Source: Candidatus Poribacteria bacterium (GTDB taxonomy: Bacteria > Poribacteria > WGA-4E > PCPOR2b). From it: a stretch of 64,000 bases of DNA. The stretch lies in contig OZ242351.1 in NCBI GenBank assembly GCA_965208675.1, positions 2,732,633 through 2,796,632 on the forward strand, in the 5' to 3' direction. Position 1 is the stretch's first letter, and every line of letters begins with the position of its first letter. Positions 5,584 to 43,710 of the stretch are shown in pieces. A model generated the notes under the pieces. The model ran no database searches. It worked only from the letters and a program-made list of their open reading frames with translations, and was not told the DNA's origin. A program made the translations under genes and the position numbers.

Positions 5584-5617
5584 CTTTTATTGAGTAATAA
5601 ATTGTAAACGGAAGCGA

Positions 5618-24295: not shown

Positions 24296-25765
24296 TTATT
24301 CCCTTGCATAAATTATCCACACTCCATCAACATTCCGCATCTTAACGAGGCGCATTATGCTTTCTGGTGGCTTTGGAAACCCTGGAGGAAGCTCTCCCAA
24401 TCCCGGTAGTTTTGGCATCGGCACGCTCAATCGGAAGTGAAATTCATCACCGACATATTCGCTCCTCACAATCTCCATCTCCCCATACATTTCCTGTGCC
24501 ATTTGCCGTATCTTCGCCTGCACTTTTGAATTCTGGTTAATCTCCAACATCATTTGCTGCAGACTATCCATCTGTTTTTCTGACATCGCTTCTTTTTCTT
24601 TCGACATCTCGTCGGAAATACGATCTGCTACGTCTTCTGAAAACCCATCACTGAAGATGTGCAAAGTAGTTTCAATGTGATTTCTGGCGGTCCCATCTAC
24701 GTACGGGAGCAATGCCTCAAAGTCAAAAGTCCTATATGCATCGAGATAAGTATCCATCAACTCTTCGGCGGCAAAACTAGCGCTTTCGGCTTCAAAAGAT
24801 GAATCAGTGACATTGCCTTTTTGAAAATCTTGATTGGTTGTCTCGTGCGTTGCTAGTTGTGAGATAGCGGCCTCCGATTGCGCGTCTGACTCATCAAGGT
24901 GAGCGAAAAAGTTTTCGATTTGCTGCATCTCCTCTGCAGAGATTTGCGGTTTGTCTTCAGGCACAGACGCGACGACTGCGCTTTTACGAGCGGCGTCCGT
25001 TTGAGCGACCGAGGTTTCAGGCTCAGTTGGCGTTGAAGCAACAATCTCTTCCGATGGCGACGAATCTTCTTTCGACGATAGGAACTGGCGCGTTCCGATG
25101 AAGGCGAGTACAATGATGGCTACGGCCCCGGCGGTGATTTTGGGTACTGTTCCAACTTTCATGACCGTTAATCCTCCTGAATAGATTTGTTTGAGTGTGG
25201 TTATCGGAGAAACGAATACACCAGAAAGCAGATGACCCAACCGCTTGGCGAGTTTCTGTTTGGCGCGTGAGAGTCGAAACGAAATTGCCTTGTATGACAA
25301 CCCGTGCGTCCGAATCAGTTCGTCGTAGCTTGCGCCTTCAAGATAGTACGAACGCGCGATGTCCCTATCTTTTTGCGGCAAGGTTTCCATCGCGCGGCGA
25401 ATCAGTTCTCTCTGTTCGCGGCGTATCAACTCTTCGTCAGGTGAATCCGCGGTTTGAAGCGTACCTTCGCTCACCTCGTTGATGGATACGGCGTCGATTC
25501 GTTGTTGTTCTCGCAACCAGTTTAAGGCTCGATTTCGCGCAATTTTTGCGAGCCAGCCTTTGAATCTTTTCGTATCCTCAAGTTGTGGCAAACCGCGGTA
25601 AGCGTTAAGGAAGATTTCTTGGACAACTTCCTCGGCGTCGTTGGGATTGTTTACGATTCCGATTACAATCGCATAAACGAAGGCATAATACGCCTGCATT
25701 AACTCAGTGAACGCACCTTCGTCCCATGTTTGGGCGCGAGAAATGAGGGCGTTGTCGTTATCCAC
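24296..25765 (-). CDS. ECF sigma-TM-periplasmic module fusion protein (subfamily A paralog)
   Basis: Same architecture and motifs. GTG start. C-terminus ...VKMRNVDGVWIIYARE. The sigma-domain region is nearly identical in DNA to the neighbouring paralogs. Confidence 0.8.
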   Translation of the reverse strand: MDNDNALISRAQTWDEGAFTELMQAYYAFVYAIVIGIVNNPNDAEEVVQEIFLNAYRGLPQLEDTKRFKGWLAKIARNRALNWLREQQRIDAVSINEVSEGTLQTADSPDEELIRREQRELIRRAMETLPQKDRDIARSYYLEGASYDELIRTHGLSYKAISFRLSRAKQKLAKRLGHLLSGVFVSPITTLKQIYSGGLTVMKVGTVPKITAGAVAIIVLAFIGTRQFLSSKEDSSPSEEIVASTPTEPETSVAQTDAARKSAVVASVPEDKPQISAEEMQQIENFFAHLDESDAQSEAAISQLATHETTNQDFQKGNVTDSSFEAESASFAAEELMDTYLDAYRTFDFEALLPYVDGTARNHIETTLHIFSDGFSEDVADRISDEMSKEKEAMSEKQMDSLQQMMLEINQNSKVQAKIRQMAQEMYGEMEIVRSEYVGDEFHFRLSVPMPKLPGLGELPPGFPKPPESIMRLVKMRNVDGVWIIYARE

Positions 25766-25986: not shown

Positions 25987-28728
25987 TTAATACAAATAAT
26001 TAACTTCGTAAATTTGCCATGCACCGTTCTCTTTTCGCATCTTAACAGACGTACCCGGCATCTCTAGGTGCTCGGGCATCTCCGGCAGCTCTATCCCCTG
26101 TAATTCGGGCATCTCCGATATGTCCGGTATCTCTATTTTCGGCATGGCTATTTTCAATTGGAAGTGGAATTCATCGTCGACATATTTACTGGTCACAATC
26201 TCAACCTGACTGAACATTGATCGCACCATCGGATTCTGCATCGTATCGTTTAACATCTGAATCATACCGTCCGCCATTTCTTCTGATAACCCAATGTCAT
26301 TATAATATATATCAACAAGCTCATCCGGAAGCTCACCGTTAAACATGCCTATAAGACCCGTTACCACTGGTCGGGCAGTGCCTGTCACATACGGCAGCAT
26401 CGTCTCAAGTTCAAGCTTTCTATACGCCTCTATATAGGCATTCATCAACTCTTCGGCGGATGCATTCGCGTCGGTTGTGCTGGACTCGGTTTCAGATTCA
26501 GACGGTAGTTGGGAGGTGTCCACTTCCGGTTCTTCGATTTGACCGAGGGAGTCCTTGCCAACGATGACGGTGGCGCGCTTGTTTCGAGGGAATACACTCG
26601 CCGCCAGGTGCTGCATGTCTGCATCGGTAACGCGCTGGATGGCATCACGCAATTCGTTGCCATCCAGTTTCAGTTGATACCGACGACCGGTGCTGAAAGC
26701 TAAACCGTAAAGGTTTTGCGCCCACATGGCATCCGGCACCTCAACTGTGCCCAACATTGCCATTGAGTTAAGCGTTCGCTGTTTGTCCTCCGGTGTAAGT
26801 TTTGTCGCCAACGCCGTGTTTAGGCGTTCGTCGAGTTGAATCAGTGCAATATGGTCGTCTGTGTCAGATTGTAGGTCGGTTTGGAGCACAAGTGTGGTAT
26901 CATCCTCCAGCGGTGTGAAGTACACACGCGGTGTTTTACCCGGCTGAAAGACGAACTGTGCGCTTGCCCACAAACGCGAGACAACTATCAGGAACGGCGC
27001 GTACTCCTTACTCCCGGGTCGGGGTGCAGCATATCCAATCGCTGCGACGCCGGTCGTATCGTCGTTCACAGGTTCTGCAGTAAGCAACCGCAGCCCGCCG
27101 GTCAATGCTATAGACTTGCGCGGTTTAATAGGGGGCGACACGCTGGGCGAAATGTGACCGAAGTTTTGGTGAATCAACTGCCGCGCTTCGGCAACGTCAA
27201 ACCCGCCTGCGATGGCAAGAATGGCGTTGTTCGGTTTGTAGTAATTCTGCCAAAATTGCTGGAGCTCGTCGAGCGTCATAGTCTCGATGTGCTCGGGCGC
27301 GACGCCGACGCGTCCGCCTTCGAGAATCGTGTGCAAGTGAGCTCGAACACTGTTTAAACCGACCAGCGACGGGACGCCACTATACATGTTCCTCAACTCC
27401 GCCATCACGCGAGGCACCTCACGATTCAGATCGGCTTGGGTAATGCGTAGGTCATTCATGCGGGTAGCCGCGTCCTTCAATTCGGACGCGAATTGTTTTG
27501 CTTCGACGACCCCGGCAAAAACGGTGTAGTCAAATCCCGTGTGCGAGTTCCAGCCTGCAACATAGCGTGCCTGAAGCTGTATGGCGCCGCGCGCTGGGGA
27601 GTCGCCGGCTGCAGCGGTATAATACAGGTGTTCAAGCAGGTGTGCTCTGCCGGACTTTCCGATCGGGTCGTGGTCTCCGCCCAAATTGAACAGCACTACA
27701 ACCGCCACTTGGCTTGACGTGGGAACAGGGCGTAGAATGACTGTCAGCCCATTTTCCAGTTTGTACGGCGCCCGTATCTCGGTCTTTGAAATTTTAACCT
27801 CGGCGACGGAGTTGATCGGACTCGGTTGCTCGGGCGAATTACCGACAATCCCCGTGCCGTGTTCACCAAGAACCGTTGGCGGTTTGGCCCCCTCGGCCAC
27901 GAGTTCCACCGGAATCTCTGCAAACATTGTCATCTGGATTTCGCTGGGAAGCGGTGAACTGGCCAGATCGCCGGGCGTAGCAACTGGTCGGAGAAATTGA
28001 TTGAAAAGCATAAAGGTAAGTACTATCCCGACGGTCGCTGAACCGATGAATGGAAGCAACGGCTTCGTTGAAATCGGTTGCACTTTGGTTGACTTAATGG
28101 CTTCGACGATTCGGAACGTAAAGCCTGACTGTAATTTTTTCTCTGCAAATGTGGTGTCTATCATCGAAATCAACTCCTCCTTCAGTTTGGTTCTGGCTCG
28201 CATCAACCGTTGGTTCACGGTGTTGACAGAAGTCCCCAAAAACCGCGCAATCTCCTTGCTACTCAGACCGCCAAGATAGTAGAGCGTCAACGTCTGTCGA
28301 TAGATTTCCGGCAATTGATCAATCGCCTCACGGATGGATTCGGCTGCGGCTTCGCTTCGATAGGCATCAATTGACGGTGTGTCCAAGAGCGCCGTGTCTT
28401 GGTCCTCGATGTAGTCTCCATCTGGACGGCGTAATCGGGATGTGAGAAAATTTGTGCACGAATTAACCGTAATTGAGAACAGCCACGCTAAGAAGTTATC
28501 CCGTCGCTTGAGGGTAGGAAGTTTCTGATAGGCTTTAATAAAGACTTCTTGGGTGATGTCCTCAGCATCGTGGAAGTTTCTAAGCTTTGTGTAAGCTAGG
28601 GCATAGACGCTCGACTTGTATTTATCAACGAGCAAGCCAAACGCCGCCGATTCTCCATTAAGGCATTTTCCGATGATGTATCCATCTTCTGTGTACACGG
28701 TTCTATTCCTCTCACCAAATGGCTTCAT
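25987..28728 (-). CDS. ECF sigma-TM fusion with periplasmic M16 (pitrilysin-like, HxxEH) peptidase domain and C-terminal KMRK..WRIY module (subfamily B)
   Basis: 913 aa. ECF regions 2 and 4 (DAEDITQEVFIKAYQKL; LSSKEIARFLGTSVNTVNQRLMRARTKL), TM (GSATVGIVLTFMLF), GKSGRAHLLEHLYYT inverted zinc motif, C-terminus ...SKYVDDEFHFQLK...VKMRKENGAWQIYEVNYLY. Confidence 0.8.
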   Translation of the reverse strand: MKPFGERNRTVYTEDGYIIGKCLNGESAAFGLLVDKYKSSVYALAYTKLRNFHDAEDITQEVFIKAYQKLPTLKRRDNFLAWLFSITVNSCTNFLTSRLRRPDGDYIEDQDTALLDTPSIDAYRSEAAAESIREAIDQLPEIYRQTLTLYYLGGLSSKEIARFLGTSVNTVNQRLMRARTKLKEELISMIDTTFAEKKLQSGFTFRIVEAIKSTKVQPISTKPLLPFIGSATVGIVLTFMLFNQFLRPVATPGDLASSPLPSEIQMTMFAEIPVELVAEGAKPPTVLGEHGTGIVGNSPEQPSPINSVAEVKISKTEIRAPYKLENGLTVILRPVPTSSQVAVVVLFNLGGDHDPIGKSGRAHLLEHLYYTAAAGDSPARGAIQLQARYVAGWNSHTGFDYTVFAGVVEAKQFASELKDAATRMNDLRITQADLNREVPRVMAELRNMYSGVPSLVGLNSVRAHLHTILEGGRVGVAPEHIETMTLDELQQFWQNYYKPNNAILAIAGGFDVAEARQLIHQNFGHISPSVSPPIKPRKSIALTGGLRLLTAEPVNDDTTGVAAIGYAAPRPGSKEYAPFLIVVSRLWASAQFVFQPGKTPRVYFTPLEDDTTLVLQTDLQSDTDDHIALIQLDERLNTALATKLTPEDKQRTLNSMAMLGTVEVPDAMWAQNLYGLAFSTGRRYQLKLDGNELRDAIQRVTDADMQHLAASVFPRNKRATVIVGKDSLGQIEEPEVDTSQLPSESETESSTTDANASAEELMNAYIEAYRKLELETMLPYVTGTARPVVTGLIGMFNGELPDELVDIYYNDIGLSEEMADGMIQMLNDTMQNPMVRSMFSQVEIVTSKYVDDEFHFQLKIAMPKIEIPDISEMPELQGIELPEMPEHLEMPGTSVKMRKENGAWQIYEVNYLY

Positions 28729-28965: not shown

Positions 28966-30354
28966 CTATTCATAAATTCGCCATGCCCCGTCCTCCTTTC
29001 GCATCTTAACAACGTTTTCTACGCTCTCCGGCAACTCTGGCATCTCGTCCAGTAGTTCCGCCCGTAGTTCTTCCGGCGTATCCCGCATCAGCGGTTCTAT
29101 CAGTGCTCCAAATTGTGGTAAAGTTGTTCTCACTCGAAAATGGAATTCATCGCCAACATATTCGCTGCTTACAACCTCGGACCCGCCAAGCACCGGGCCG
29201 AACGTCAACTCAATCATCTGCTTGAGCTCTGGATTTTCCTCCATAAAATCTTTCATGTCCGGCAAAACACTTTCCAGCTCTTCTTTAGCAGCCCCTGTCA
29301 ATAACGGGAGCATTGCCTAAAAGTCTAAATTCTTGGATGCCTCGATATAGGCGTTCATTACCTCTTCAGCGGATTGTTCCGTGTCTTCAACAACCGCATC
29401 GGTACTGATTGAGACATGCTGATCGAAGTCTTGCTGATGTGCGGCTTCTGCGTGTTGTGTTTTGTCCGATTGTGCGTCCGCTTCATCGAGTTGAGCGAAG
29501 AAGTTTTCAATTTGCTGCATCTCCTCTGCAGAGATTTGTGGTTTGTCTTCAGGCACAGGCGCGACGACTGCGCTTTTACGAGCGGCGTCCGTTTGAGCGG
29601 CGGAGGTTTCAGCCTCAGTTGGCGTTGAAGCAACAATCTCTACCGTTGGAGTCGAATCTTCTTTCGACGAAATGAACTGGCGTGTCCCGATGAAGGCGAG
29701 TGCGATGATGGCAACTGCCCCGGCGGTGATTTTGGGAACGGTTCCAACTTTCATGACCGTTAATCCTCCTGAGTAGATTTGTTTGAGTGTCAACGCGGGA
29801 AAGGCGAATACACCAGTGAGTAGATGGCTCAACCGCTTGGCGAGTTTCTGCTTGGCACGCGAAAGCCGAAACGAAATCGCCTTGTATGACAACCCATGCG
29901 TCCGAATCAGTTCGTCGTAGCTGGCGCCTTCAAGAAAGTAGGAGTGAGCGATGTCCCTATCTTTTTGCGGCAGCGATTCCATGGCACGTCGAATTAGTTC
30001 TCTCTGCTCGTCGCGAATCAAGCTTTCGTCAGCAGACTCTGACAACTGAACTGCCCGCTCATCCACTTCATCAATAGATACGGTGTCCAACCGCTGTTCG
30101 CGTAACCAGTTTAAGGCTCGATTTCGCGCAATTTTTGCCAGCCAACTCTTGAGTTTGGTCTGCTCCTCATACTGCGCTAAGGCGCAGTAGGCGTTGAGAA
30201 AGGTGTCTTGCACAATCTCTTCGGCGTCGTTGGGATTGTTCACGATTCCGATTACAACCGCATAAACGAAGGCATAATGCGCCCGCATCAATTCAGTGAA
30301 TGCACCTTCGTCTCCCGCTTGGGCGCGAGAAATGAGCGTATCGTCGTTCCTCAC
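28966..30354 (-). pseudogene. Subfamily-A ECF sigma-TM-module paralog interrupted by one in-frame TAG (29314-29316); may be expressed as two products
   Basis: ORFs 29317-30354 (sigma + TM + linker, ends ...KNLDF*) and 28966-29313 (AMLPLLTGAAKEE...VKMRKEDGAWRIYE) are in the same frame. Paralogs read DFEAM at this position, consistent with GAG to TAG. Confidence 0.6.
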
Positions 30355-30430
30355 CGTAATTCATTCCCTTCCATCTACGCTATACAGAACACAGCTTTTG
30401 AGATTTTTCTAGCACTTTTTGGGTATTTAA

Positions 30431-30474
30431 CTGTCTGAATCAGGATTTACCGGATTAAGGGATTCTCAGGATAA
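30431..30474 (-). promoter_or_regulatory. Conserved promoter core upstream of the 28966-30354 paralog
   Basis: TTATCCTGAGAATCCCTTAATCCGGTAAATCCTGATTCAGACAG plus the conserved leader. Confidence 0.5.
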
Positions 30475-30491
30475 CAAAATACACGCGGGTT

Positions 30492-30527
30492 GAAAATAAA
30501 AAAGGCGAATGGGTTGAACCATTCGCC
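30492..30527 (-). terminator. Intrinsic terminator (same hairpin family) after the WD40 gene
   Basis: GGCGAATGGttcaacCCATTCGCC + TTTTTTATTTTC on the minus strand. Confidence 0.6.
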
Positions 30528-30557
30528 TGGTGAAGTGTTGAGGAATTCGGTTGCGGG

Positions 30558-32441
30558 TCATCGAGAGACATCCCATAAAAGCACTGTTCCGTCGTAACTT
30601 CCACTCCCCAGCGTGCTCCCATCCGGGTTGAATGCCAGGGTACTAATGTACGACGTATGCCCCTTCAAGCTTCGTCGCTGCGTCTCCGTCTTGGCATCCC
30701 ACAGAAGGATGATTGCGTCGGCATCCCCACTCGCAAGCGTTCGTCCATTCGGGCTAAACTCTACCGCGGTAACATCTGCCGAGTGACCGTTTAGCGTTCT
30801 ACGGTGCGTCCCCGTGGCAGCATTCCAAAGCTGGACGGAATGGTCGCCGCTCCCACTGGCTATCTTGTTTCCGTCTGAGCTAAAGGCGACGCTCGTGATG
30901 TCCGCGGTATGACCCTTTAGTGTTCGGCGGTGCGCGCCCGTGGCGACATCCCAAAGTCGGATGGTTGCGTCGGTGCACCCGCTTGCCAACGTCGCGCCGT
31001 CTGGGCTGAACGCAAGCGTCGAGCGAGCCGGCCTGTAAACGCGAGGAACGGTGTCCGACGCCTCCCAGTGCAGGTTATGCAGTTGCGCACCCGTCTCGGC
31101 ATTCCACAGGCGGATAGTTGTTTCGCCGTTCCAACTTGCTACCGCTGAGCCATCCGGGCTGAACGCTATGCTGTGGTCTACGCCGTCATCGTTTCGTAAT
31201 GTCCGCAGATATGCACCTGTCTTTACATTCCAAAGGCAGACGGAATGATGCCCATTTCCACCTGCTAACGTTAGCCCATCCGGGCTAAATGCTATGCTAT
31301 GGGCCTCTGATAAATACCGGTCCAGTGACCGCTTGTGCTCGCCTGTCACAGCATCCCATAAACGAATGGGATTCAACCGGCTCGCACTTGCCAACGCCGC
31401 ACCGTTCGGGTTGAACGCTATGCTAATGACGGGTTTTATATGTCCATCCAGCGTCCCTAAGTGCGTATCCGTCACCGGATTCCACAGGCGAATTGTCCCG
31501 TCGTCACTCCCGCTTACCAACGTTGCACTATCCGGGCTGAAGACGACATGAGTGACCCAACCCGTATGTCCTTCTAGCTCCCGCAGCCGTGTTCCTGCCG
31601 CGACATTCCACAATCCGATGGTCGTGCCAGGCCCACCACTTGCCAAGATACTGCCATCCGGGCTGAACGCGACGCTCGAGACCATAGGTATGCGTTCTTC
31701 CAGTTGCCAAAGGTGTACTCCGGTCTTAGCGTTCCAAAGTCGGATGCTATCGCCCCAACCGCCGCTTGCCAGTACGCTGCCATCTGGGCTGAACGCGACC
31801 GCGGTGGCATACTCCGTGTGACCTTCCAGAGTTCGTACAGGTACGCCTGTCTCCACATCCCACAGACGAATAGTCTTGTCATAACTTGCGCCTGCCAACG
31901 TCGAGAAATCCGGGCTGAACGCGGCGGTACCAACGGAATATGTATCTCCCTGCGGAGTACGCAGTTCCAGTGACCGCGTATGTGTTTTAGTCTCGACATC
32001 CCACAGATGAACGGTCGTCTGCGACACACCTGCTAGTGTGCTGCCATCCGGGCTGAAAACCACGTTCAAGGTGCCCTCTGATTTTGCCTCCAGTGTATGT
32101 AGGTGTAAACCCGTCACGGCATCCCACAGACGAACGGTATTGTCCGAACTTCCACTCGCTAGCATGCTGCCATCCGGGCTGAACACTACGCTCGCCACAA
32201 TTCCCGAATGTCCGGTGAGCAGAGCTATCTCTTGATGGGTCGTTGTATCGTAGAGCCAGATACCGATTCCGCTGCCGACTGCAAGCCGAGCGCCATCGGG
32301 GGAATACTGTATTTGACCTATCGCCCCCTTTCCGATCCGCGCTACAACCCCTTCAGGCAAACCCCACTGCGAGGCATCTTGCGAAAAGGCGTTGCACAAG
32401 GTCAAGGAGAACAGTATATGCAAGGATAAAACTGTTTTCAT
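30558..32441 (-). CDS. Secreted WD40 beta-propeller repeat protein (~14 WD repeats)
   Basis: Signal peptide, then reiterated [HS]xxxVxSVAFSPDGxxLASGSxDxTIRLWD units throughout. Confidence 0.9.
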   Translation of the reverse strand: MKTVLSLHILFSLTLCNAFSQDASQWGLPEGVVARIGKGAIGQIQYSPDGARLAVGSGIGIWLYDTTTHQEIALLTGHSGIVASVVFSPDGSMLASGSSDNTVRLWDAVTGLHLHTLEAKSEGTLNVVFSPDGSTLAGVSQTTVHLWDVETKTHTRSLELRTPQGDTYSVGTAAFSPDFSTLAGASYDKTIRLWDVETGVPVRTLEGHTEYATAVAFSPDGSVLASGGWGDSIRLWNAKTGVHLWQLEERIPMVSSVAFSPDGSILASGGPGTTIGLWNVAAGTRLRELEGHTGWVTHVVFSPDSATLVSGSDDGTIRLWNPVTDTHLGTLDGHIKPVISIAFNPNGAALASASRLNPIRLWDAVTGEHKRSLDRYLSEAHSIAFSPDGLTLAGGNGHHSVCLWNVKTGAYLRTLRNDDGVDHSIAFSPDGSAVASWNGETTIRLWNAETGAQLHNLHWEASDTVPRVYRPARSTLAFSPDGATLASGCTDATIRLWDVATGAHRRTLKGHTADITSVAFSSDGNKIASGSGDHSVQLWNAATGTHRRTLNGHSADVTAVEFSPNGRTLASGDADAIILLWDAKTETQRRSLKGHTSYISTLAFNPDGSTLGSGSYDGTVLLWDVSR

Positions 32442-32681
32442 TTGAAGACTCCTTTACAACTAAAATCATTGCAATCAACGTTACAGAAAAAACCAATCGC
32501 AACATTTCGTCAATTCTACTACGAGTAGAACATGCTATTGGTGGGGTCAATCGTTTTCTTACCGCAAAAGAATTGTTGCGAACATGGAAGATGGATTCAA
32601 CAATCAAGTCATAGAGGCATGTTACGGCTTACACAATTTTCGACTGCACTTCAGACCATGGTTCTACAAGCCCGCTAACAA

Positions 32682-34895
32682 TTACTGATAATCAATGTCA
32701 TAAATTCGCCATTCATCAGCCTCTTTTCGCATCTTATAAGTCATATCCGGAATTTCCAGGTGGTCGGGCATCTCCGACAGTTCCATCCCCTCCGGCATTT
32801 CTATCCCTTGTAGTTCGGGCATTTCCGATACGTCCGGCATCTCTATTTTCGGTATCGGTATTCTCAATTTGAAATGAAATTCATTGCCGACAAATTCACT
32901 GCTTACAACCGTTAACTGACTGTATATTGAGCGCAAGCCTGCTTGCACCATGGGATTGTTCATAGAATCCTCCATCATCTGAACCGTGCCGTCCGGCATG
33001 GAATCTATAAGCTCTTCTGGAAACTCACCGCTAAACACGTCCATGGTACTTTTTACCTCTTCTAGGGCGGTGCCTGACAAATACGGGAGCATCGTATCAA
33101 GGTCAAGATTTTTATGTGCCTCTACAAAGGCGTTCATCACCTCTTCGGCGGATACGCCTGCGCTATCAACGCTTAATCGTGCATCCGATTCTTCAGAAGA
33201 GAGCAGAGAAGCGCCGCCAACGATGACGGTGTCGCGTTTCTCTGGCGAGAATACATTCGCTGCCAGGTGCTGCATATCTACATCGGTTACACGCTGGATG
33301 GCATCGCGCAGATCCCCGCCATTTAGTTTCAGTTGATACCGGCGGCCAATGCTGAACGCTAATCCGTACGGATTTTGCGCCCACATGGCATCCGGTACAT
33401 CAACTGTGCCCATCATTGCCATTGAGTTTATCGTTAGCTGTTTGTCCGCCGGCGTGAGTTTCGGCGTCAATGCCGTGTTTAGGCGTTGGTCGAGTTGATC
33501 GAGCGCTGACTCAATGTCCGCCTCAATTTGCACGTCGGTCTGGAGCACAAGCGTGGTGCCATCGTCCAATGGTGTAAAGTACACAGGCGGTGTTTTGCCC
33601 GGCTGAAATGCAGCCTGCGCGCCTGCCCACAAACGTGAGACAACTATCAGGAACGGCGCGTATTCCTTGCTCCCGGGTCGGGGTGCAGCATATCCAATCG
33701 CTGCGACGCCGGTCGTAACGTCGTTCACAGGTTCCGCGGTGATGAAGCGAATTGCCCCGGTCTTCGCTGCAGGCTTGGGCGGCTTTGCAGGCGGAGGCAT
33801 ACCGGACGGAATCAGGCTGAAGTTTTGGTCAATCAAATGCCGCGCTTCGGCAACGTCAAACCCGCCTGCGATGACAAGAACGGCGTTGTTCGGCTTGTAG
33901 TAATCCTGCCATAACTGCTGCAGTTCACCGAGAGTCATTGTCTCAATGTGCTCGGGCGCACCGCCGACCCGTCCGCTTTCGGGGATGGGGTGCACCTGAG
34001 CTCGCACACGGTTTATGCCGACCAGCGACGGCACGCCGCTGTACATGTTACTCAATTCTGTCATCACGCGAGGCACCTCGCGGATTAGATCAGCTAAGGT
34101 GATTTGCAAATCGTTCATGCGCGCAGCCGCATCCTTCAACTCCAACGCGAATTGCCCTGCTTCGACGACACCTGCAAAAACAGTGTAGTCGAACCCTGTT
34201 TGCGCGTTCCAGCCTGCAACATAGCGTTCTTGAAGCTTCATGGCGTCGCGCGCTGGGGTGTCACCGGCTGCAGCGGTGCAATACAGGTGTTCAAGCAGGT
34301 GTGCTCTGCCGGACTTTCCGATCGGGTCGTGGTCTCCGCCCAAATTGAACAGCACTACAACCGCCACTTGGCTTGACGTGGGAACAGGACGTAGAATGAC
34401 TGTCAGCCCATTGTCCAGTTTGTACGGGGTTGGTATCTCAGAATTCGAAATTGTAGCGGCGGCGTTCATCGAACTCGGTTGACCGGGCGAATTGCCGACA
34501 ACCCCCGTTCCGGGCTCACCGGCAACCGTCGGCGGTTTGGAGGCATCAGCAACGAGTTCAACCGGAATCTCTCCAATCATTGTCATCTGGATATCGCTGG
34601 GGTACGGTGAACTGGCCAGATCGCCGCGCGCAGCGGCTGGACGGAGCAATTGACTGAAAAACATAAAGGTAAGCACAATCCCGACTGCTGCTGAACCGAT
34701 GAACGCAGGCAACGGCTTTGTTGAAATTGGTTGCACTTTGGTTGACTTAATAGCTTCCACGATTCGGAACGTAAAGCCTGACTGTAATTTTCTCTCTGTA
34801 AATGTGGTGTCTATCATTGCAATTGACTCCTCCTTCAGTTTGGTTCTGGCTCGCATCAGCCAGTCGTTGACGGTATTGACGGAACGCTCAAACAC
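32682..34895 (-). CDS. Subfamily-B paralog lacking most of the sigma domain: region-4 remnant + TM + M16 peptidase domain + KMRK..WRIY module
   Basis: About 75% aa identity to 25987-28728 from SVNTVN..LMRARTKLKEE onward. HLLEH is intact. C-terminus ...YKMRKEADEWRIYDIDYQ. The ORF starts inside the sigma region-4 helix. Confidence 0.65.
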   Translation of the reverse strand: MFERSVNTVNDWLMRARTKLKEESIAMIDTTFTERKLQSGFTFRIVEAIKSTKVQPISTKPLPAFIGSAAVGIVLTFMFFSQLLRPAAARGDLASSPYPSDIQMTMIGEIPVELVADASKPPTVAGEPGTGVVGNSPGQPSSMNAAATISNSEIPTPYKLDNGLTVILRPVPTSSQVAVVVLFNLGGDHDPIGKSGRAHLLEHLYCTAAAGDTPARDAMKLQERYVAGWNAQTGFDYTVFAGVVEAGQFALELKDAAARMNDLQITLADLIREVPRVMTELSNMYSGVPSLVGINRVRAQVHPIPESGRVGGAPEHIETMTLGELQQLWQDYYKPNNAVLVIAGGFDVAEARHLIDQNFSLIPSGMPPPAKPPKPAAKTGAIRFITAEPVNDVTTGVAAIGYAAPRPGSKEYAPFLIVVSRLWAGAQAAFQPGKTPPVYFTPLDDGTTLVLQTDVQIEADIESALDQLDQRLNTALTPKLTPADKQLTINSMAMMGTVDVPDAMWAQNPYGLAFSIGRRYQLKLNGGDLRDAIQRVTDVDMQHLAANVFSPEKRDTVIVGGASLLSSEESDARLSVDSAGVSAEEVMNAFVEAHKNLDLDTMLPYLSGTALEEVKSTMDVFSGEFPEELIDSMPDGTVQMMEDSMNNPMVQAGLRSIYSQLTVVSSEFVGNEFHFKLRIPIPKIEMPDVSEMPELQGIEMPEGMELSEMPDHLEIPDMTYKMRKEADEWRIYDIDYQ

Positions 34896-35205
34896 TGCGC
34901 AATCTCTTTAGTAAATAGCCCCCTAGTATTTAACCCTTTGCTACGGGTAGAGAGATTCTGATACACTTAAAAAACATTACGTGCGCGGCATCCTCATCAT
35001 TAATTAAGTTACTCAGCTTTGCGTAAGCGAGAGCGTAGACGCTCGACTTGTATTTATCAAAGAGCAAGGCAAATGCCGCCGATTCTCTATTAAGGCATTT
35101 TCCGATGATGTATCCATCTTCCGTGTACACGCTGCTGCTCCTCTCACTGAACGACTTCATTTTGTAAGACAATGCAAAAGACTGAAAAATTACAAGGGTG
35201 GACAA
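34896..35205 (-). pseudogene. Disrupted N-terminal (sigma region 2) remnant of the 32682-34895 paralog
   Basis: ORF 34930-35205 translates MKSFSERSSSVYTEDGYIIGKCLNRESAAFALLFDKYKSSVYALAYAKL, which matches the N-terminus of the 25987-28728 paralog. About 300 bp covering sigma regions 2.3 to 4 are missing or garbled before the frame resumes at 34895. Confidence 0.6.
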
Positions 35206-35253
35206 TTTCTGGGCGGAAAGAGAGGATAATTATTGAGGTGAATCTGTTGCCAA

Positions 35254-35297
35254 ACTGTCTGAATCCGTATTTACTGGAATAAAGGATTCTTAGGATA
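35254..35297 (-). promoter_or_regulatory. Conserved promoter core (slightly diverged) upstream of the disrupted 32682-35205 paralog
   Basis: TTATCCTAAGAATCCTTTATTCCAGTAAATACGGATTCAGACAG. Confidence 0.45.
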
Positions 35298-35314
35298 ACA
35301 GATTTGTCGCGGGT

Positions 35315-35350
35315 TGGAAATAAAAAAGGCGAATGGGTTGAACCATTCGC
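35315..35350 (-). terminator. Intrinsic terminator (same hairpin family) after the 35427-36308 gene
   Basis: GGCGAATGGttcaacCCATTCGCC + TTTTTTATTTCC on the minus strand. Confidence 0.6.
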
Positions 35351-35426
35351 CTGGTGTATCGGGGCAAGGAAACTCCTCATACCAATGTCTACAGTACTCA
35401 TCCGACAGTTAATCGGTACTATGGAA

Positions 35427-36308
35427 TTATTCAGGGGAAGCCGAGTCGAAAGTGAAGCGCGTCTTCTGTGTATTTAGGGTCCCCTGGCGTTCGAGAAACT
35501 CGGCTAAAGGTTTAATATCTTCAATTGCGGTTTCTAAATTTTCAATCTCCTTGGCATGTTTTTCAGGGGAATGGTCTTTTAGCATCTGCTTTTTTAATTC
35601 GAGAAACCGAATAATCTCTGGAATCGTGCCTTCTTTCTCACGAGAAAGACGAAAAAAGAGTTCCTCCCATTCTTTTGTGAGAGGGTGTCCATGAAACGCG
35701 AGCGCGCTGAATGAGACAAGTTCCGCCCTTGCAGCTTTCGGGTCCGTCTGGAGCAGTTCATGAAATGCATGCAAATGCTCTTGCCCGACCTTGGTGTCCA
35801 AGATCGCCCCTGTTTTTGACGGCTCCTTCTGTTCATCCTGTTCCCGCGTTTCAAGAGTTGGCTCTGAACGTTCCCACATTTTTTTCAACTCATCGTAGTG
35901 TTCCAGCATTTTGCGGTGGTGTTGTATCTGTCTGGCAAACTCCCGGGCATTGATGTGTGTCAACATTCGGATTTCCAATTCGGACACCCGTTTGAGATCC
36001 GAAAGATGTTCAGTACCTTCTCGGCTAAGGCGAAAGTAGAGGGGCACCCATTCTTCAGCGAGTGCGTGTCCGCCAAACATTTTTTTTGCAACGTTTTGGA
36101 GTTCTGAGCGGGCTGCTGCAGGGTCGGTGGGCAGGCGTTTCTTAAATGTGTCGAGGTGCTCTGTCCAAAGTGTGCAGTCTATACGATACGGTTGAGAACG
36201 TGCAGGCCTCAGGTGTGGGGGTTCTGTGGGTTCACCTGAATGACCAAAAGAAAGAGATCCAATGCTGCAAAAAGTTAAGTAAAGCAAGCAAGTGATTATA
36301 TACCTCAT
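35427..36308 (-). CDS. Secreted hypothetical protein with an internal ~100-aa tandem duplication
   Basis: Signal peptide. Two repeats sharing TDPxAARxEL...GHxLxxEWxxLxFRLSRE... Confidence 0.55.
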   Translation of the reverse strand: MRYIITCLLYLTFCSIGSLSFGHSGEPTEPPHLRPARSQPYRIDCTLWTEHLDTFKKRLPTDPAAARSELQNVAKKMFGGHALAEEWVPLYFRLSREGTEHLSDLKRVSELEIRMLTHINAREFARQIQHHRKMLEHYDELKKMWERSEPTLETREQDEQKEPSKTGAILDTKVGQEHLHAFHELLQTDPKAARAELVSFSALAFHGHPLTKEWEELFFRLSREKEGTIPEIIRFLELKKQMLKDHSPEKHAKEIENLETAIEDIKPLAEFLERQGTLNTQKTRFTFDSASPE

Positions 36309-36478
36309 GATTCACTCCTTTTGAGGAAGGTGTTTTGCTCTCAGTATAACGGTGACGAAAGTAGTGTAGGTACGATAGGTTTGAACTTTCTGATACTGTC
36401 GGATAGAGTTGCGAGCTAGTCTAATGTTTCACTGTCATAAATTCGCCACACGCCATTCTCTTTTCGCATCTTGATAAT

Positions 36479-36919
36479 CTAATTCGAGGCGGTCACTTTT
36501 GAGATTGCCATTCCTGATATCTCCGGCATCTCGGGCGGCGGTCCGCCCATTTTGAAGTGGAATTCATCCCCAACATATTTGCTACTCACAACTCCTAACC
36601 GACTAAAATACTCAAGTACAGTTTGTTCAACCATCTGACGCATCTCAGCCGGCATTTCCGGTACAATTTCCGGATCCATGAGCGGGAAGCCCATTACCGC
36701 AGCCTTTTCAAACTCCTCTTTGGCAGTCCCTGTCATTAGCGAACCCATCGCCTCAAAGTCCATATTCTTAAACGCCTTCACGAAAGTATTCATCACATCT
36801 TCAGCAGATTGAGACGTGCTCCCTGACGGCATTTCCACATCTTTTTTCTCCGATACACTCAATGAACAGCCGTTAACAAACAAAGGCAAACAGACAAGGC
36901 TCACAATCAAAAATCGCAT
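36479..36919 (-). CDS. Stand-alone lipoprotein carrying the family's periplasmic module (no sigma, no TM), ending at an in-frame TAG
   Basis: Start MRFLIVSLVCLPLFVNGC (lipobox) with GGAG RBS. Contains FKNMDFEAMGSLMTGTAKEE and VSSKYVGDEFHFKM. The TAG at 36479-36481 is followed in frame by IIKMRKENGVWRIYDSETLD* up to about 36413. Confidence 0.6.
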   Translation of the reverse strand: MRFLIVSLVCLPLFVNGCSLSVSEKKDVEMPSGSTSQSAEDVMNTFVKAFKNMDFEAMGSLMTGTAKEEFEKAAVMGFPLMDPEIVPEMPAEMRQMVEQTVLEYFSRLGVVSSKYVGDEFHFKMGGPPPEMPEISGMAISKVTASN

Positions 36920-37136
36920 TTTCTCTCCTTTGTGGTAGTAGCGATTGGTAGACAAACCGTGTATGGCATTAGCGACAGGTTGCTTATCGCGGGAAGCTAG
37001 GAATGATTTGAGCATGCATCCACGTACATGTAATGACATTGACTACAACAAATTTTTGACCGCCACTCAGAAAAATGAAGTTGTCGTGAGGAGGCAAGAG
37101 TTCAGCCACAAGCCGATTATTCACCATCGGCTGCGT

Positions 37137-38639
37137 TCAATCGGATACTGATTCGCGCGAGTCCAATATCTCACTCTCATAAACCCGCCACGCGCCATTC
37201 CCTTTCCGCATCTTGAAAAGTGTATTTGGCACAATGACGTCTGAGATTTCTATCCATGTAATCTCCGACTTATCCGGCGCTGGTCCTCCCAATACAAAGT
37301 GAAATTCATCGCCGACATATTCGTTACGCACCACATCTAGCTGACTGAGAGATTTCAGCCACACGTTTCGCATCTTCCGCTCAAATGCCCCACTTCTTAT
37401 CTCTTGTTCAATACTCCGCATCTGCTGTTCAGCCATCTGACGCATCTCAACCGGCAAATCCGACAAATCTTTTAGCCTATCTAGCAGTTTAGCTAGTTCA
37501 GCCGGGTCTAGGATTGGGAAGTTGCCTGTCGCCGCCATGGCCCACTCTCCTTTGATGCGTCCTGTGGATAGAGAGTGTACCGCTTCAAAGTCAAGATTCT
37601 GAAACCCTTTCACATAAGCGTTCATCACTTCTTCTGCGGATAAGTCCGTGTCTTCTGCTACAACAGGTGAATCGGTGTCGCCTAATTCGGAATCCTGATT
37701 AGATGCTTCATCTGTTGCTAGTTGTGGCGAATCTGCCTCCGATTGTGCGTCTGCACCCTCAAGTTGAGCGAAGAAGTCCTCAATCTGCCCCATCTCCTCC
37801 GCTGAAATTTGCGGCTTACCCTCACGCGAGGGTGCGGCGAACGTACCTTTACGCGTGGCGTCCGTTTGTGAGGCTAGGTTTGCAGACTCAGTTGATGTTA
37901 CAATCTCGACCGTAGGGGAGTTATCCTCTTTCGACGATATGAACTGGCGTGTCCCGATGAAAGCGAGTACAATGATGGCTACCGCACCGGCAGTGATTTT
38001 GGCAACTGTTCCAACTTTCATGACCGTTAATCCTCCTGAATAGAAATTTTTGAGTGAGGTTATCGGAGAAACGAACACACCGCTGAGCAGATGCTCCAAC
38101 CGTTTGGCAAGTTTCTGTTTGGCGCGCGAAAGTCGAACCGAAATCGCTTTGTAAGACAGTCCGTGCGTACTCATTAGTTCGTCATAGTCCGCACCGTCAA
38201 GGTAATAAGAGTGAACAATCTCCCGCTCTTTTGGAGAAAGCGTTCCAAGTGCGCGTCGAATCAGCTCCCTCTGTTCACTGAGAATCAACTGTTCGTCTGG
38301 CAATTCTTGCGTCTTGACGGTGGATTTACCGATTTCATCAAACAGGCTTAATTCGTCTATAGGAACAGTATCAATCCGTTGTTTTCTCAGCCAACTTCGT
38401 GCGCGATTTCGAGCAATCTCTGCGAGCCAAGTTTTGAATTTTGACCTCTCCTCATACTGCGCCAAACCACGGTAGACGTTGAGAAAGGTGTCCTGGACAA
38501 TCTCTTCGGCGTCTTGGGGGTTGTTCACCATATCGATGACGATTGCATAAACGAAAGAGTGATATGCCCGTATCAGATCGACAAATGCACCTTCATCCCC
38601 AGCTCGCGCGCGACAAATGAGTGCGCTGTCATTATCCAC
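37137..38639 (-). CDS. ECF sigma-TM-periplasmic module fusion protein (subfamily A paralog)
   Basis: 500 aa. GTG start. Sigma regions 2 and 4, TM (KITAGAVAIIVLAFIGT), PQISAEEMGQIEDFF, C-terminus ...NEYVGDEFHFVL...FKMRKGNGAWRVYESEILD... Confidence 0.8.
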   Translation of the reverse strand: MDNDSALICRARAGDEGAFVDLIRAYHSFVYAIVIDMVNNPQDAEEIVQDTFLNVYRGLAQYEERSKFKTWLAEIARNRARSWLRKQRIDTVPIDELSLFDEIGKSTVKTQELPDEQLILSEQRELIRRALGTLSPKEREIVHSYYLDGADYDELMSTHGLSYKAISVRLSRAKQKLAKRLEHLLSGVFVSPITSLKNFYSGGLTVMKVGTVAKITAGAVAIIVLAFIGTRQFISSKEDNSPTVEIVTSTESANLASQTDATRKGTFAAPSREGKPQISAEEMGQIEDFFAQLEGADAQSEADSPQLATDEASNQDSELGDTDSPVVAEDTDLSAEEVMNAYVKGFQNLDFEAVHSLSTGRIKGEWAMAATGNFPILDPAELAKLLDRLKDLSDLPVEMRQMAEQQMRSIEQEIRSGAFERKMRNVWLKSLSQLDVVRNEYVGDEFHFVLGGPAPDKSEITWIEISDVIVPNTLFKMRKGNGAWRVYESEILDSRESVSD

Positions 38640-38714
38640 TGTGCTTCGTTCCTCTCTTGTACCTTAACCAAAACGCCGTTCTGCGATTTTTTCTACTACT
38701 TTTTTGGGTATTTT

Positions 38715-38749
38715 CTGTCTGAATCAGGATTTACTGGAGTAAGGATTTA
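38715..38749 (-). promoter_or_regulatory. Partial promoter core upstream of the 37137-38639 paralog, split from its upstream half by a ~140-bp insertion
   Basis: TAAATCCTTACTCCAGTAAATCCTGATTCAGACAG. The matching upstream half (...ATCCTGAAAAG and the hairpin remnant) lies at 38896-38960. Confidence 0.4.
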
Positions 38750-39039
38750 CACAGCTGAACACCCAAAGGTTCGTAGTAGGACAATTTAATGCCCGTTTTT
38801 ACTTAAAAATATGTCAGGTCAAGGGTGTGAAGGACATACCGGACGCGCAATAAATTACGCTACTACAAGCTGAACTGCCTATGTCCTAGGAATACAGGCT
38901 TTTCAGGATAAAAAAATTTTCACGGGTTGAAAATGAAACAGGCGAATGGGTAAAAATAATTGCCTAGCGAGGGGCTGGGGTGAGAGACGTTGGTTGTTTA
39001 ACTTTTCATCCGATAGATGCGCCATTCCCCGTCTACTTT

Positions 39040-39807
39040 TCACATGCTAACGACTAGTCCAAAATTGCTGTATGCATCGGCCATCGGCACGGTCAATCGG
39101 AATTGGAATTCATCGCCGACATATTCACTACCCACGATTGTCGTCTGACGGAAAATTCGACGCCATTTCGCTAGGTTTTCCGGAGATCGAATTGAATCCA
39201 TTGCTTTGTAAGCCGACTCAACTGCCTCGTCTATTTCAGTTTCGGACATACCATCGTCGATTGAAGTCAGGTAGTCATTCAGCATTTTTTCCGGCATCAC
39301 CCCACCGAGAACACTCAAAAGGTTTTCAATAGGTTTCCTGGCATTCTCAGTAGTGAATGGGAGAACCGTCTCCAAATCGAAATCCCTAAACGCATCCACG
39401 AACTTATTCATCACTTGTTCAGCGGGATGCTCTAGATTTGCACCCGAGTCTTCGGAGAAGTGTTCAGCGCTATCCTGTATTATCTCTGCGTTTAGTGATG
39501 ATTTCGGTTCATCCAACTCTGGTTGTTCAGCCATGTCTTCGAGTTGGGCGAAAAAGTCCTCAATTTGCTGCAGCTCTGCGGCAGAGATTCGCAGCGTGTC
39601 TTCTGGCAAAGCGCTATCGATTTCGGCATTTCGCGCCGTACGCGTTTGAGCGGCCGAATCTGAAAACTCCTTTGGCGATGATATTACAATCTCAACCTCT
39701 CGATCCGAATCCTCTTCAGCCGAAATGAACCAGAGTGTTATAATCGTGCCGACTAAAATGAGGGCTACTGCACCGGCTACGGTTTTGTGAAGCGTTCCAA
39801 ATTTCAT
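39040..39807 (-). CDS. Sigma-less family member (TM anchor + acidic linker + periplasmic module) with premature TGA in the KMRK motif
   Basis: Starts MKFGTLHKTVAGAVALILVGTIITL, homologous to the ...MKVGTVPKITAGAVAIIVLAFIGT segment of full-length paralogs. Contains LRISAAELQQIEDFFAQLED and ...SEYVGDEFQFRL...VVSM. The TGA at 39040-39042 is followed in frame by KVDGEWRIYRMKS* (CGA to TGA at the Arg of KMRK). Confidence 0.65.
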   Translation of the reverse strand: MKFGTLHKTVAGAVALILVGTIITLWFISAEEDSDREVEIVISSPKEFSDSAAQTRTARNAEIDSALPEDTLRISAAELQQIEDFFAQLEDMAEQPELDEPKSSLNAEIIQDSAEHFSEDSGANLEHPAEQVMNKFVDAFRDFDLETVLPFTTENARKPIENLLSVLGGVMPEKMLNDYLTSIDDGMSETEIDEAVESAYKAMDSIRSPENLAKWRRIFRQTTIVGSEYVGDEFQFRLTVPMADAYSNFGLVVSM

Positions 39808-41643: not shown

Positions 41644-43317
41644 CTAAAAACGGTAAAACCACGTTGTAGCGAATTCGATTCCGCGTCCGGATTCAAGGGG
41701 TTTGAAAAAGTTCATTCTGGAAATAGGGCTGTCCTCCGAGAACTGTAAACCGATACCGACATCTGTCTTTGGATCAAAGCGGTACGGTTTATCAGATATA
41801 CTCCAAACTTGCCCTTCATTAAGGGACAACACGATGAACCACTCATTCAGAAACCCCCAATGGTACAGATTTGAGAGACGGTATAAATATTCTATATTGA
41901 GCAGGGCGCCGTGATCTCCTGAAAATGCGTAGAGTGGATATCCGTTCAAGAGACCAGGCCCCCCAATAAAGAATTGGCGTTGAATCGGCAGTTCATCCGT
42001 AGCAAAGCCCAACATCAGCCGCGTTTGGACAATGTTATTTCCTTTCCCTACTGCATATCGCAGGTGCAACTGAAACCGCGTAAAATCAAAATCGGAATCA
42101 ACGGCAGGACTGCTGTGCTCGACGAGAAGGGTATTGTGCCAACCGAGGTTTTTGTTTTTCCTAGTGTTCAGGTCGTACGTAAATTCGACACTCCGCAGCC
42201 GCCCGGGGTCTATCCGTGGATTTTCTCTCGCTTTTGGAACTGAATCCCAATTGTAAAGATGCCAATCCGTAGATTTACGCAGGCTTTCGTGTGATTCGGC
42301 GCGCATCGTGAATTTGAGCGAATGCGTGAACTCCCGCGGTTCCCATCGAATCGACATCTCAACCCCTTCTCTTAAATAGTAGTTATGTAGCTGAGTCAGC
42401 CCCAGAACGCTACACCAGACGTACCATCCATCCTCGTAGGACGGGAAAAGATCCGGAGAGACGACAGCGGTGGTGCGATGGATTTGAGCCGTGACGCCCA
42501 AATTCCAGATGTTGGGTTGCCCCTGGATAGCTTCTCCACCCACTCTGTAATTGAGATACTTATTTCCAAATCCGTAGCCAATCTCTCCAAATAATTTTGG
42601 CAGATGCGCTCTAGCCGAGCTAGGGATGTCCCACATCCAGAGCGGTCCCATCTGCCACCGTTTTCCCAGTTCGAGGCGAGTAGCCAGCAACCATCCGGTG
42701 ACACGATTAAACCGAATGAGCGGAACTGGACCGAGATAATAGTTTGAAGAGAGCGCTTTTTCGGCGACGGTAATTATCGCAACGAGCTTTGTGCCGTCAT
42801 TCGTATACTCTAAGGTGACCCGACTAAAATAGGGTAAGAAATCCTTTAAGGTGTCAACTGCTTTGTTGAGGTCTTCAGGTCCGTATTCAAGGCCGCCTCG
42901 AATCTCCGCCTCGGAAACTTTCTGATTTCCTCGAATCCGAATTTCATGAATTGGGTGTCCCGCGGCAGTCCGAAACCGCGTCGTTGGTGGAGTTGGCGAA
43001 CTCTGCCTATCCGGCTGCGTTACAACGATAATTGTTGCTACACGCCTCGAACCGTCATGCTTAATTTCCAAGATGGCCCTATTCAAATCGGGCAAAGGCA
43101 AGGTTGTAATCGCTTTTGTGATATCCTCAGGTGCGTTTTCAAGGGCGCTTCGAATTTGTGCTTCGCTGATTTGCTGATTTCCTTGAATCCGGACTTCATG
43201 AATCGGTTCGCCTTCGGCAGTCCGAAACCGCGTGGAATCGTTTTGCGGATGTGCGCTCGCCGCAACACCAATCTCTACCGTCAAAAATGAAATGACGAGG
43301 AGCATTACGCGGTTCAT
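41644..43317 (-). CDS. Omp85-superfamily outer-membrane beta-barrel protein with two tandem POTRA-like repeats
   Basis: Signal peptide. Duplicated ~75-aa unit (TRFRTAEGEPIHEVRIQGNQQISEAQIR... and TRFRTAAGHPIHEIRIRGNQKVSEAEIR...). A long barrel-like region with alternating hydrophobic residues ends in ...WFYRF, with a terminal Phe. Confidence 0.65.
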   Translation of the reverse strand: MNRVMLLVISFLTVEIGVAASAHPQNDSTRFRTAEGEPIHEVRIQGNQQISEAQIRSALENAPEDITKAITTLPLPDLNRAILEIKHDGSRRVATIIVVTQPDRQSSPTPPTTRFRTAAGHPIHEIRIRGNQKVSEAEIRGGLEYGPEDLNKAVDTLKDFLPYFSRVTLEYTNDGTKLVAIITVAEKALSSNYYLGPVPLIRFNRVTGWLLATRLELGKRWQMGPLWMWDIPSSARAHLPKLFGEIGYGFGNKYLNYRVGGEAIQGQPNIWNLGVTAQIHRTTAVVSPDLFPSYEDGWYVWCSVLGLTQLHNYYLREGVEMSIRWEPREFTHSLKFTMRAESHESLRKSTDWHLYNWDSVPKARENPRIDPGRLRSVEFTYDLNTRKNKNLGWHNTLLVEHSSPAVDSDFDFTRFQLHLRYAVGKGNNIVQTRLMLGFATDELPIQRQFFIGGPGLLNGYPLYAFSGDHGALLNIEYLYRLSNLYHWGFLNEWFIVLSLNEGQVWSISDKPYRFDPKTDVGIGLQFSEDSPISRMNFFKPLESGRGIEFATTWFYRF

Positions 43318-43430
43318 CTGGCACCTCCTTTAGGTACAATCCGTATGCTTCCCGTTGTGAAATCGGAACTTCGGCCATATTCAACTACAAAATCCAGATA
43401 AATTTCTTGCCACTTTTATCGGGTGATAAA

Positions 43431-43474
43431 CAGTCTGAATCAGGATTTACTGGATCAAAGGATTCTCAGAATAG
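43431..43474 (-). promoter_or_regulatory. Intact conserved promoter core upstream of the Omp85/POTRA gene
   Basis: TATTCTGAGAATCCTTTGATCCAGTAAATCCTGATTCAGACTG, about 115 bp upstream of the ATG at 43317. Confidence 0.5.
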
Positions 43475-43491
43475 CAGATTTTTAGCGGTAT

Positions 43492-43527
43492 GAAAAGAAA
43501 AAAGGCGAATGGATTGAACCATTCGCC
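43492..43527 (-). terminator. Intrinsic terminator (same hairpin family) after the orphan module fragment, upstream of the Omp85 gene
   Basis: GGCGAATGGttcaatCCATTCGCC + TTTTTTCTTTTC on the minus strand. Confidence 0.55.
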
Positions 43528-43544
43528 TTGTGTAGTTTTTGGAC

Positions 43545-43710
43545 TAGGAATTCAGGTTAGTGATGGTACACCTCATCTTCAATTTCATGAATGTGCCATG
43601 TTCCACCGACGCTGGCACACCAAACGTTCTCCAGCGGAAGTGCAATTCATCGCCGACATGCACACTGCTCAAAATCCCGACCCAATAAGGCTCTGTAGAT
43701 ATTTCACCTA
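43545..43710 (-). pseudogene. Orphan fragment of the family C-terminal module
   Basis: Minus-strand translation ...ILSSVHVGDELHFRWRTFGVPASVEHGTFMKLKMRCTITNLNS* resembles SSEYVGDEFHFRL...KMRK. There is no upstream ORF. Confidence 0.5.

Follow-up and report, generated by a model that had tools for sequence, protein, structure and literature searches.

In-frame stop codons in three members of a tandem family of ECF sigma factor fusions in a Candidatus Poribacteria genome

A tandem cluster of nine family members

We analyzed a 64,000-nucleotide stretch of contig OZ242351.1 (assembly GCA_965208675.1) from a Candidatus Poribacteria bacterium, referred to here as the window. It carries a tandem gene family whose main form joins an extracytoplasmic function (ECF) sigma factor core to a C-terminal domain with a putative NTF2-like fold (hereafter the NTF2-like domain). 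A profile search of the six-frame translation of the window found nine family members inside 25 kb, H and I among them. Premature in-frame stop codons in three paralogs had been reported in an initial annotation, and all three are present, on the minus strand, in the members designated C, D, and F. The family members and lesions are listed below.

22594–24078, minus strand: paralog A, intact, 494 amino acids (aa), 81% identical to the protein L2_s494
24296–25765, minus strand: paralog B, intact, 489 aa, with a sigma domain matched by Pfam
25987–28728, minus strand: paralog H, intact, 913 aa, with sigma domain, predicted transmembrane helix, inserted M16-like domains, and NTF2-like domain
28966–30354, minus strand: paralog C, with sigma domain, predicted transmembrane helix (hydrophobic peak at residues 206–224), acidic linker, and NTF2-like domain, in which an in-frame stop (TAG) takes the place of codon 346
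28966–29313, minus strand: remainder of C, an orphaned 115-codon NTF2-like part with an ATG start one codon past the stop
29317–29319, minus strand: premature TAG in C, GAG to TAG (G to T)
32682–35205, minus strand: I, an H-type copy with a destroyed sigma domain and a 737-aa open reading frame (ORF)
36416–36919, minus strand: D, predicted lipoprotein form, natural length 167 aa, with a signal peptide carrying a ...VNGC lipobox followed by the NTF2-like domain
36479–36481, minus strand: premature TAG replacing GAG at codon 147 of D
37137–38639, minus strand: paralog E, intact, 500 aa
38998–39807, minus strand: F, natural length 269 aa, with a predicted transmembrane anchor at the N-terminus, a linker, and the NTF2-like domain
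39040–39042, minus strand: premature TGA replacing CGA at codon 256 of F, within the invariant KMRK motif
43544–43700, minus strand: weak, non-significant match (phmmer E = 0.84) to the C-terminal domain (VGDELHFRW...KLKMR), possibly a decayed remnant
45131–46564, minus strand: paralog G, intact, 477 aa

The architecture common to paralogs A, B, C, E, and G is an ECF sigma core followed by one hydrophobic helix, an acidic linker, and a C-terminal NTF2-like domain. Besides this main form, the family includes the 167-aa lipoprotein form represented by D and the 269-aa membrane-anchored form represented by F, both of which are conserved and lack a sigma domain. The family is confined to Poribacteria and close relatives and is arranged in tandem arrays.

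The sigma core is truly of the ECF type (group 4): regions 2 and 4 are present, and regions 1.1 and 3 are absent. The Pfam domains Sigma70_r2 and Sigma70_r4_2 scored above cutoff in A, B, C, E, and H, regions 1 and 3 had no match, and NCBIfam TIGR02937 reached 100 bits (cutoff, 43); none of the NCBIfam equivalog or subfamily models reached its cutoff on the sigma core. In A, B, C, E, G, and H, a single Kyte-Doolittle peak of 1.8–2.1 lies immediately past sigma4, at residues ~206–230, and the hydrophobic helix starts ~25–30 residues past region 4. Judging from this hydropathy profile, the helix would span the membrane and place the outer domain on the extracytoplasmic side. The linker is ~100–130 residues long and acidic, with 22 Asp/Glu vs. 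4 Lys/Arg across 100 residues of A. No anti-sigma domain (ZAS, RskA, or FecR-like) was detected by Pfam or NCBIfam between the sigma core and the helix.

The C-terminal domain comprises ~115–170 residues, closes with the most conserved motif of the family (KMRKxxGxWRIY), and had no match in Pfam, including the SnoaL model, or in NCBIfam. An AlphaFold2 model of an intact D ortholog contained four helices and a four-stranded sheet (mean predicted local distance difference test score (pLDDT) of 74, >90 in the core), with strands beta3 and beta4 at residues 147–165 (pLDDT around 90). The top Foldseek matches of this model in the PDB were all NTF2-like but weak (best E = 4.5e-4, TM-score 0.3–0.55). 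This outer domain is presumably the sensor of the family. In a comparison that included P0137–P0143, the N-terminus of the sigma-less proteins (MKFGT/MKVGT..., as at the start of F at 39807) matches a conserved internal Met of the fusions (...LTVMKVGTVPK..., at ~23460 in A); this resemblance suggests that a sigma gene and a downstream membrane protein gene may have undergone fusion or fission, or possibly that an internal start is used.

Premature stops in C, D, and F

The stop in C is a TAG at 29317–29319, which splits the 28966–30354 region into ORFs of 345 and 115 codons. The initial annotation had placed it at 29314–29316, 3 nt off and corresponding to the next codon, GCA, whereas its description of the change as GAG to TAG within a DFEAM segment shared by siblings was accurate: five window paralogs carry GAG and one carries GAA. 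GAG also occupies the site in the DNA of the C orthologs in the related genomes L086 and L002. The closest homologs of C are 473–481 aa long and read DFEAM through the stop position (among them P0001, P0002, and L2_s473, of 473–476 aa).

For D, the TAG at 36479–36481 had been located correctly, but the sibling comparison used to call it a one-base change does not hold, as E, its closest sibling in the window, has ACA in what is a variable column. The stop in D is also a one-base change because the true ortholog in L083, with 96.8% nucleotide identity, has GAG at this site; that in L084 has GAA. Eight D orthologs from independent samples (86–95% identity) all carry Glu and read SASNEIIKMRKENGVWRIYDSETLD (...SASNEIIKMRK...). 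In D itself, 20 sense codons follow the stop before the natural TAG. D is a member of a conserved 167-aa lipoprotein-like subfamily, whose lipoprotein nature is predicted by inspection of the signal peptide region.

The TGA in F lies exactly at 39040–39042, as first described, and replaces CGA, which six window paralogs retain; the full column in the window siblings contains CGA six times and CGG twice. The F ortholog of L087, located directly after PhyH, has CGA at the site and is intact, and the stop in F postdates the split from the L087 genome (regional synonymous divergence (dS) 0.07–0.33). Twelve orthologs (P0121–P0132; 65–83% identity) are exactly 269 aa long, the length that F would have on read-through, with Arg at the stop residue in all but one, which has Gln. 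The alternative that F is what remains of a sigma fusion after loss of its 5' part was ruled out by the twelve sigma-less 269-aa orthologs. D and F are not decaying sigma-fusion copies but belong to conserved sigma-less subfamilies.

In C, D, and F alike, an in-frame stop stands where orthologs have a sense codon and a conserved C-terminus, as in pseudogenes. Comparison with related genomes and estimation of dN/dS (omega) downstream of the stops had been proposed as checks, and both were carried out: the orthologs of C, D, and F are full length, and the codons past the stops are still conserved, with no measurable decay. Relaxed constraint in the form of omega near 1 or accumulated indels was not seen after the stops. 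There were no nonsynonymous changes in the 20 codons of D (omega 0), omega was 0.18 over 13 codons of F, and in C it was 0.34–0.46 over 116 codons vs. 0.21–0.27 upstream, as measured against orthologs. At 43 sites that are invariant otherwise, the C remainder carries 2 private changes, which is no excess over intact orthologs (0–3 in most of them), and it also has one private in-frame 9-aa deletion. Since the codons after all three stops are still conserved, either the lesions are young or, in evolutionary terms, C, D, and F do not yet count as pseudogenes.

Against L087, family genes showed omega values of 0.25–0.47, vs. 0–0.19 for most flanking genes. The highest values were those of F (0.47) and I (0.38), followed by Omp85 and PhyH (both 0.30). 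Across positions 18550–50888, dS against L087 was 0.07–0.14 in the outer flanking genes and 0.18–0.33 from TAL through F.

Turnover of the cluster in related genomes

The proposal of the initial annotation that the family is undergoing birth-and-death decay agrees with the intact orthologs found elsewhere and with independent lesions and gene breaks in the cluster of relatives. Nonsense codons, frameshifts, deletions, transposase-adjacent breaks, and module swaps were observed in the same cluster of five related genomes. Within the window, a further lesion, which had not been listed previously, is the broken sigma domain of ORF I, and the weak remnant near 43.6 kb may be another. In I, residues 1–74 of H match 34936–35160 in another frame; the sigma domain has lost ~220 nt by deletions and has a scrambled stretch, and a 737-aa ORF follows. 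A sigma-less form of I, 714–742 aa long, also occurs in L086 and L087.

The gene order in the window is G, a gap, Omp85, DLH, PhyH, F, E, D, a 293-aa gene, I, WD40, C, H, B, and A, with premature stops in F, D, and C. In L002, the order is Omp85, sigma, DLH, PhyH, sigma490, H, sigma473, sigma494, and rarA. The sigma gene between Omp85 and DLH is found in both L002 and L010 and is missing in the window. In L087, the closest relative, whose flanking proteins are 95–100% identical to those of the window, E is reduced to a 3' stub and the WD40 gene to its last 36 codons. In L086, E is interrupted beside a transposase gene, WD40 is split by another transposase gene, and a 642-aa ORF at 5688–7616 consists of an H-type sigma N-terminus, with 90% identity to residues 1–307 of H, fused to WD40 repeats, a chimera that probably arose by deletion.

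Point lesions recur among the orthologs as well. The A ortholog of L010 is frameshifted, as is P0134 among the F-type orthologs, where P0135 and P0136 are short; the C-type P0008 and the D-type P0207 carry frameshifts near the terminal motif; and the L084 counterpart of I, an H/I-type gene (5482–8085), has an in-frame TAG (...SVNTVN, stop, RLMRAR) where H has Gln. L082 and L086, both from ERZ21830300, hold several transposase genes and many fragmented genes (MR_MLE, G-type sigma, F-type, FG-GAP, and TPR), reflecting either real genome decay or low-coverage assembly error.

Sigma and sensor modules are re-assorted between paralogs in the window (22594–46564), L002, and L010. Paralog A has a sigma module like that of L2_s473 (86%) and a sensor module like that of L2_s494 (84%), and C shows the reverse. 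L2_s490 and L10_E482 share 99–100% nucleotide identity over the first ~840 nt and 40–60% thereafter, where L2_s490 instead matches B at 81–91%. The transmembrane and linker segment is 70–93% identical among all paralogs, and the breakpoints fall in this segment.

Origin and significance of the stops

We interpret the stops, with a probability of roughly 0.7, as real, recent point mutations that knock out or cripple three members of a redundant, Poribacteria-specific family in an early phase of birth-and-death evolution. The stops in C and D are both G-to-T changes (GAG to TAG), and that in F is a C-to-T change (CGA to TGA). Truncated C would keep its sigma domain, transmembrane helix, and linker and lose the sensor domain. 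In D and F, the stop would remove beta3 and beta4, the final pair among the four core strands, together with KMRKxxGxWRIY; on the structural model, the D and F products are most likely misfolded nulls. Because the family appears to be redundant and weakly constrained, in a cluster that turns over fast by recombination, deletion, and transposase-adjacent breaks, such lesions may arise and persist repeatedly. Nonsense codons affect 3 of the 9 family genes and none of the 18 non-family window genes that were length-checked against relatives (hypergeometric p ~0.03, calculated by hand; p ~0.004 if all ~43 other ORFs are assumed to be intact). Several points weigh against this interpretation. The stops are seen in assembled sequence, in which a consensus error or a minority haplotype could also appear; the stop alleles occur in no independent assembly, so that the truncated products are known from the 4.89-Mb source contig only; and neither the stop nor the sense allele of the D site turned up in two metagenome scans. 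The lack of decay after the stops fits an artefact, read-through, or a very recent origin equally well. Functional loss of C, D, and F is what we infer from the truncations, and the location of two stops within 5 aligned codons, just before or inside the terminal motif, could hint at selection.

If the stops were decoded, whether through a suppressor tRNA, programmed read-through, or insertion of selenocysteine at the TGA or pyrrolysine at the TAGs, full-length proteins would still be made, and the frames indeed stay open and conserved up to the natural stop in C, D, and F. The initial annotation had judged recoding unlikely, with TAG ending UDG, HemN, and ParA and TGA ending PGI, ADH, and rarA, and our results bear this out. 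Pfam confirmed these gene identities, TAG also ends PhyH, DLH, and Omp85, TGA also ends WD40 and TPR, and the terminators of window ORFs of at least 150 aa are TGA in 19, TAA in 15, and TAG in 9 cases. Many of the conserved genes ending in TAG or TGA do so at ortholog length, and lengths equal to those of orthologs were found for PhyH (245 aa), Omp85 (557 aa), rarA (450 aa), WD40 (627 aa), TPR (654 aa), and the 293-aa gene. No stable fold resembling a selenocysteine insertion sequence (SECIS) follows the TGA of F (z = 0.24), scans of the 64-kb window found no tRNA gene or Rfam element, and no ortholog in any other genome examined has a stop at these positions. Recoding is very unlikely, and the least credible of the alternatives, because TAG and TGA are normal terminators here, no SECIS-like structure is present, and the stops stand in for Glu, Glu, and Arg rather than Cys or Lys. 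Were the stops instead artefacts of the consensus or the assembly, or minority haplotypes that the assembler had picked, the real genes would be intact; this would account for stop alleles confined to a single assembly and for the perfect conservation of the sequence past the stops. Paralog-rich regions are harder to polish, and the many fragmented genes of L082 and L086, which come from one other sample, are possibly error-driven. All three lesions are, however, clean substitutions rather than homopolymer indels, the typical error of long reads. At the sites of the stops in C and F, no window paralog has the base that creates the stop, and therefore neither gene conversion nor cross-paralog mis-polishing from mis-mapped reads can explain these two stops; the other length-checked genes of the window are all unbroken. 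Related chromosome-level Poribacteria metagenome-assembled genomes have metaMDBG-style contig names and 35–89x coverage, and according to the sponge genome notes in Wellcome Open Research such genomes were built from PacBio HiFi reads with metaMDBG. If the source assembly was likewise made from HiFi reads, as we infer, substitution errors would be far rarer than 3 in 64 kb. Sequencing error is thus an unlikely cause, and an artefactual origin as a whole appears improbable.

The truncated genes might instead be selected functional variants, with C acting as a sensor-less sigma factor that is signal-blind or constitutively released, and D and F as altered decoys or regulators of the neighboring fusions. 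The sigma domain, helix, and linker of C are intact, the window also encodes an RseP-type site-2 protease, two of the stops cluster at the terminal motif, and lesions near that motif recur in the P0008 and P0207 lineages; by analogy with truncated IutY (PMC8999054), C without its sensor would perhaps be signal-blind or constitutive. Yet every close ortholog keeps the full domain, and the codons past the stops are conserved, which would be unexpected had the truncated forms long been under selection. The loss of two of the four core beta-strands should, on the model, unfold D and F, and 3'-terminal lesions, being the least harmful, would be expected to persist longest even under neutral or slightly deleterious decay. 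Selection for the truncated forms is therefore unlikely, even if it ranks first among the alternatives. The stops could also be the visible face of a diversification system in which broken, truncated, or sigma-less copies serve as recombination donors or decoys and recurrent loss of the terminal beta-hairpin is selected. Modules do re-assort between neighboring paralogs through the homogenized transmembrane and linker segment, and hairpin loss would, for example, lock or silence sensing channels in the sponge host; we regard this as doubtful, ranking it below an artefactual origin.

If they are recent loss-of-function mutations, the stops themselves are ordinary, being very young alleles in a redundant family of an uncultured sponge symbiont, and their practical value lies in annotation, where C, D, and F deserve a flag marking these ORFs as disrupted. 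The more interesting by-product is the family and its module swapping. This Poribacteria family, which appears not to have been described before, would comprise ECF sigma factors that are tethered to the membrane and carry an NTF2-like domain on the outside; its tandem clusters change fast between close relatives and may offer a model for the diversification of one-component-like sigma signaling in host-associated bacteria. Neither Poribacteria nor this family is mentioned in the ECF reclassification paper, a literature search returned no paper tying Poribacteria to ECF sigma factors, and a search for Poribacteria together with pseudogenes returned matches that concerned other taxa.

The lesions resemble nonsense pseudogenes in expanded paralog families, in which single-base stops occur in some tandem members while siblings and orthologs are intact, deletions, frameshifts, transposase-adjacent breaks, and chimeras lie nearby, and constraint is weaker than in neighboring genes. 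They differ in being too recent for measurable post-stop relaxation and in that two of the three stops hit conserved sigma-less subfamilies rather than redundant sigma-fusion duplicates. With regard to architecture, IutY/ECF243, SCO4117/ECF52, ECF48, and ECF53 also combine a sigma2–sigma4 core, a transmembrane segment, and an extracytoplasmic domain in one polypeptide. Unlike the ECF243- and ECF52-type fusions, the Poribacteria family has no anti-sigma, zinc-finger, or FecR-like domain, and its outer domain is putatively NTF2-like without a Pfam or NCBIfam match. In the studied examples of ECF fusions with a C-terminal extension, truncation of the extension alters activity (PMC8999054). Regulated proteolytic release of the sigma domain is plausible in the Poribacteria family, with circumstantial evidence in the gene for an RseP homologue in the window. 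This gene (3772–5583, minus strand; 603 aa) encodes Peptidase_M50 and PDZ domains and, on its domain content, is a candidate for releasing the putatively membrane-tethered sigma factors.

An NTF2-superfamily domain C-terminal to the ECF core, as is putatively present in the Poribacteria family, is found in ECF41, ECF56, ECF205, ECF294, and ECF295. In the ECF41-type groups, this SnoaL domain is cytoplasmic and touches the sigma core, whereas the Poribacteria domain is predicted from sequence to be placed outside by the transmembrane helix and linker. RsgI9 of Clostridium thermocellum (PDB 7sjy, S1C-NTF2) has an extracytoplasmic NTF2-like module in a sigma-regulating membrane protein and is among the structural matches of the modeled domain, but it acts as an anti-sigma factor in a polypeptide of its own, which also has a peptidase-like domain. 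The match to RsgI9 was weak (E about 8e-3, TM-score 0.15–0.27), and the likeness is one of structure.

Several minor observations concern the remainder of the cluster and its surroundings. An ORF-poor gap of 1.8 kb (43317–45131) separates Omp85 from G and is absent in L001 and L087; it includes the 43544–43700 remnant and a 140-aa hydrophobic ORF (44027–44449) with no Pfam match. Two pairs of same-frame ORFs were considered as broken genes and dismissed. The composition of 52151–52534/52535–52780 is non-coding-like, and 50484–50888/50898–51161 comprises an intact 134-aa cupin gene, 100% identical to that of L087, and a spurious upstream ORF. An apparent in-frame stop in the E ortholog of L010 was likewise an artefact, as the tblastn alignment ran past the natural end after ...SETLD. 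At this position, E of the window has instead lost the stop: it carries TCG (Ser) where the L010 ortholog (12345–12347) and D have TAG after ...SETLD, and it extends 6 codons further (...ILDSRESVSD; 3' end at 37137–37160).

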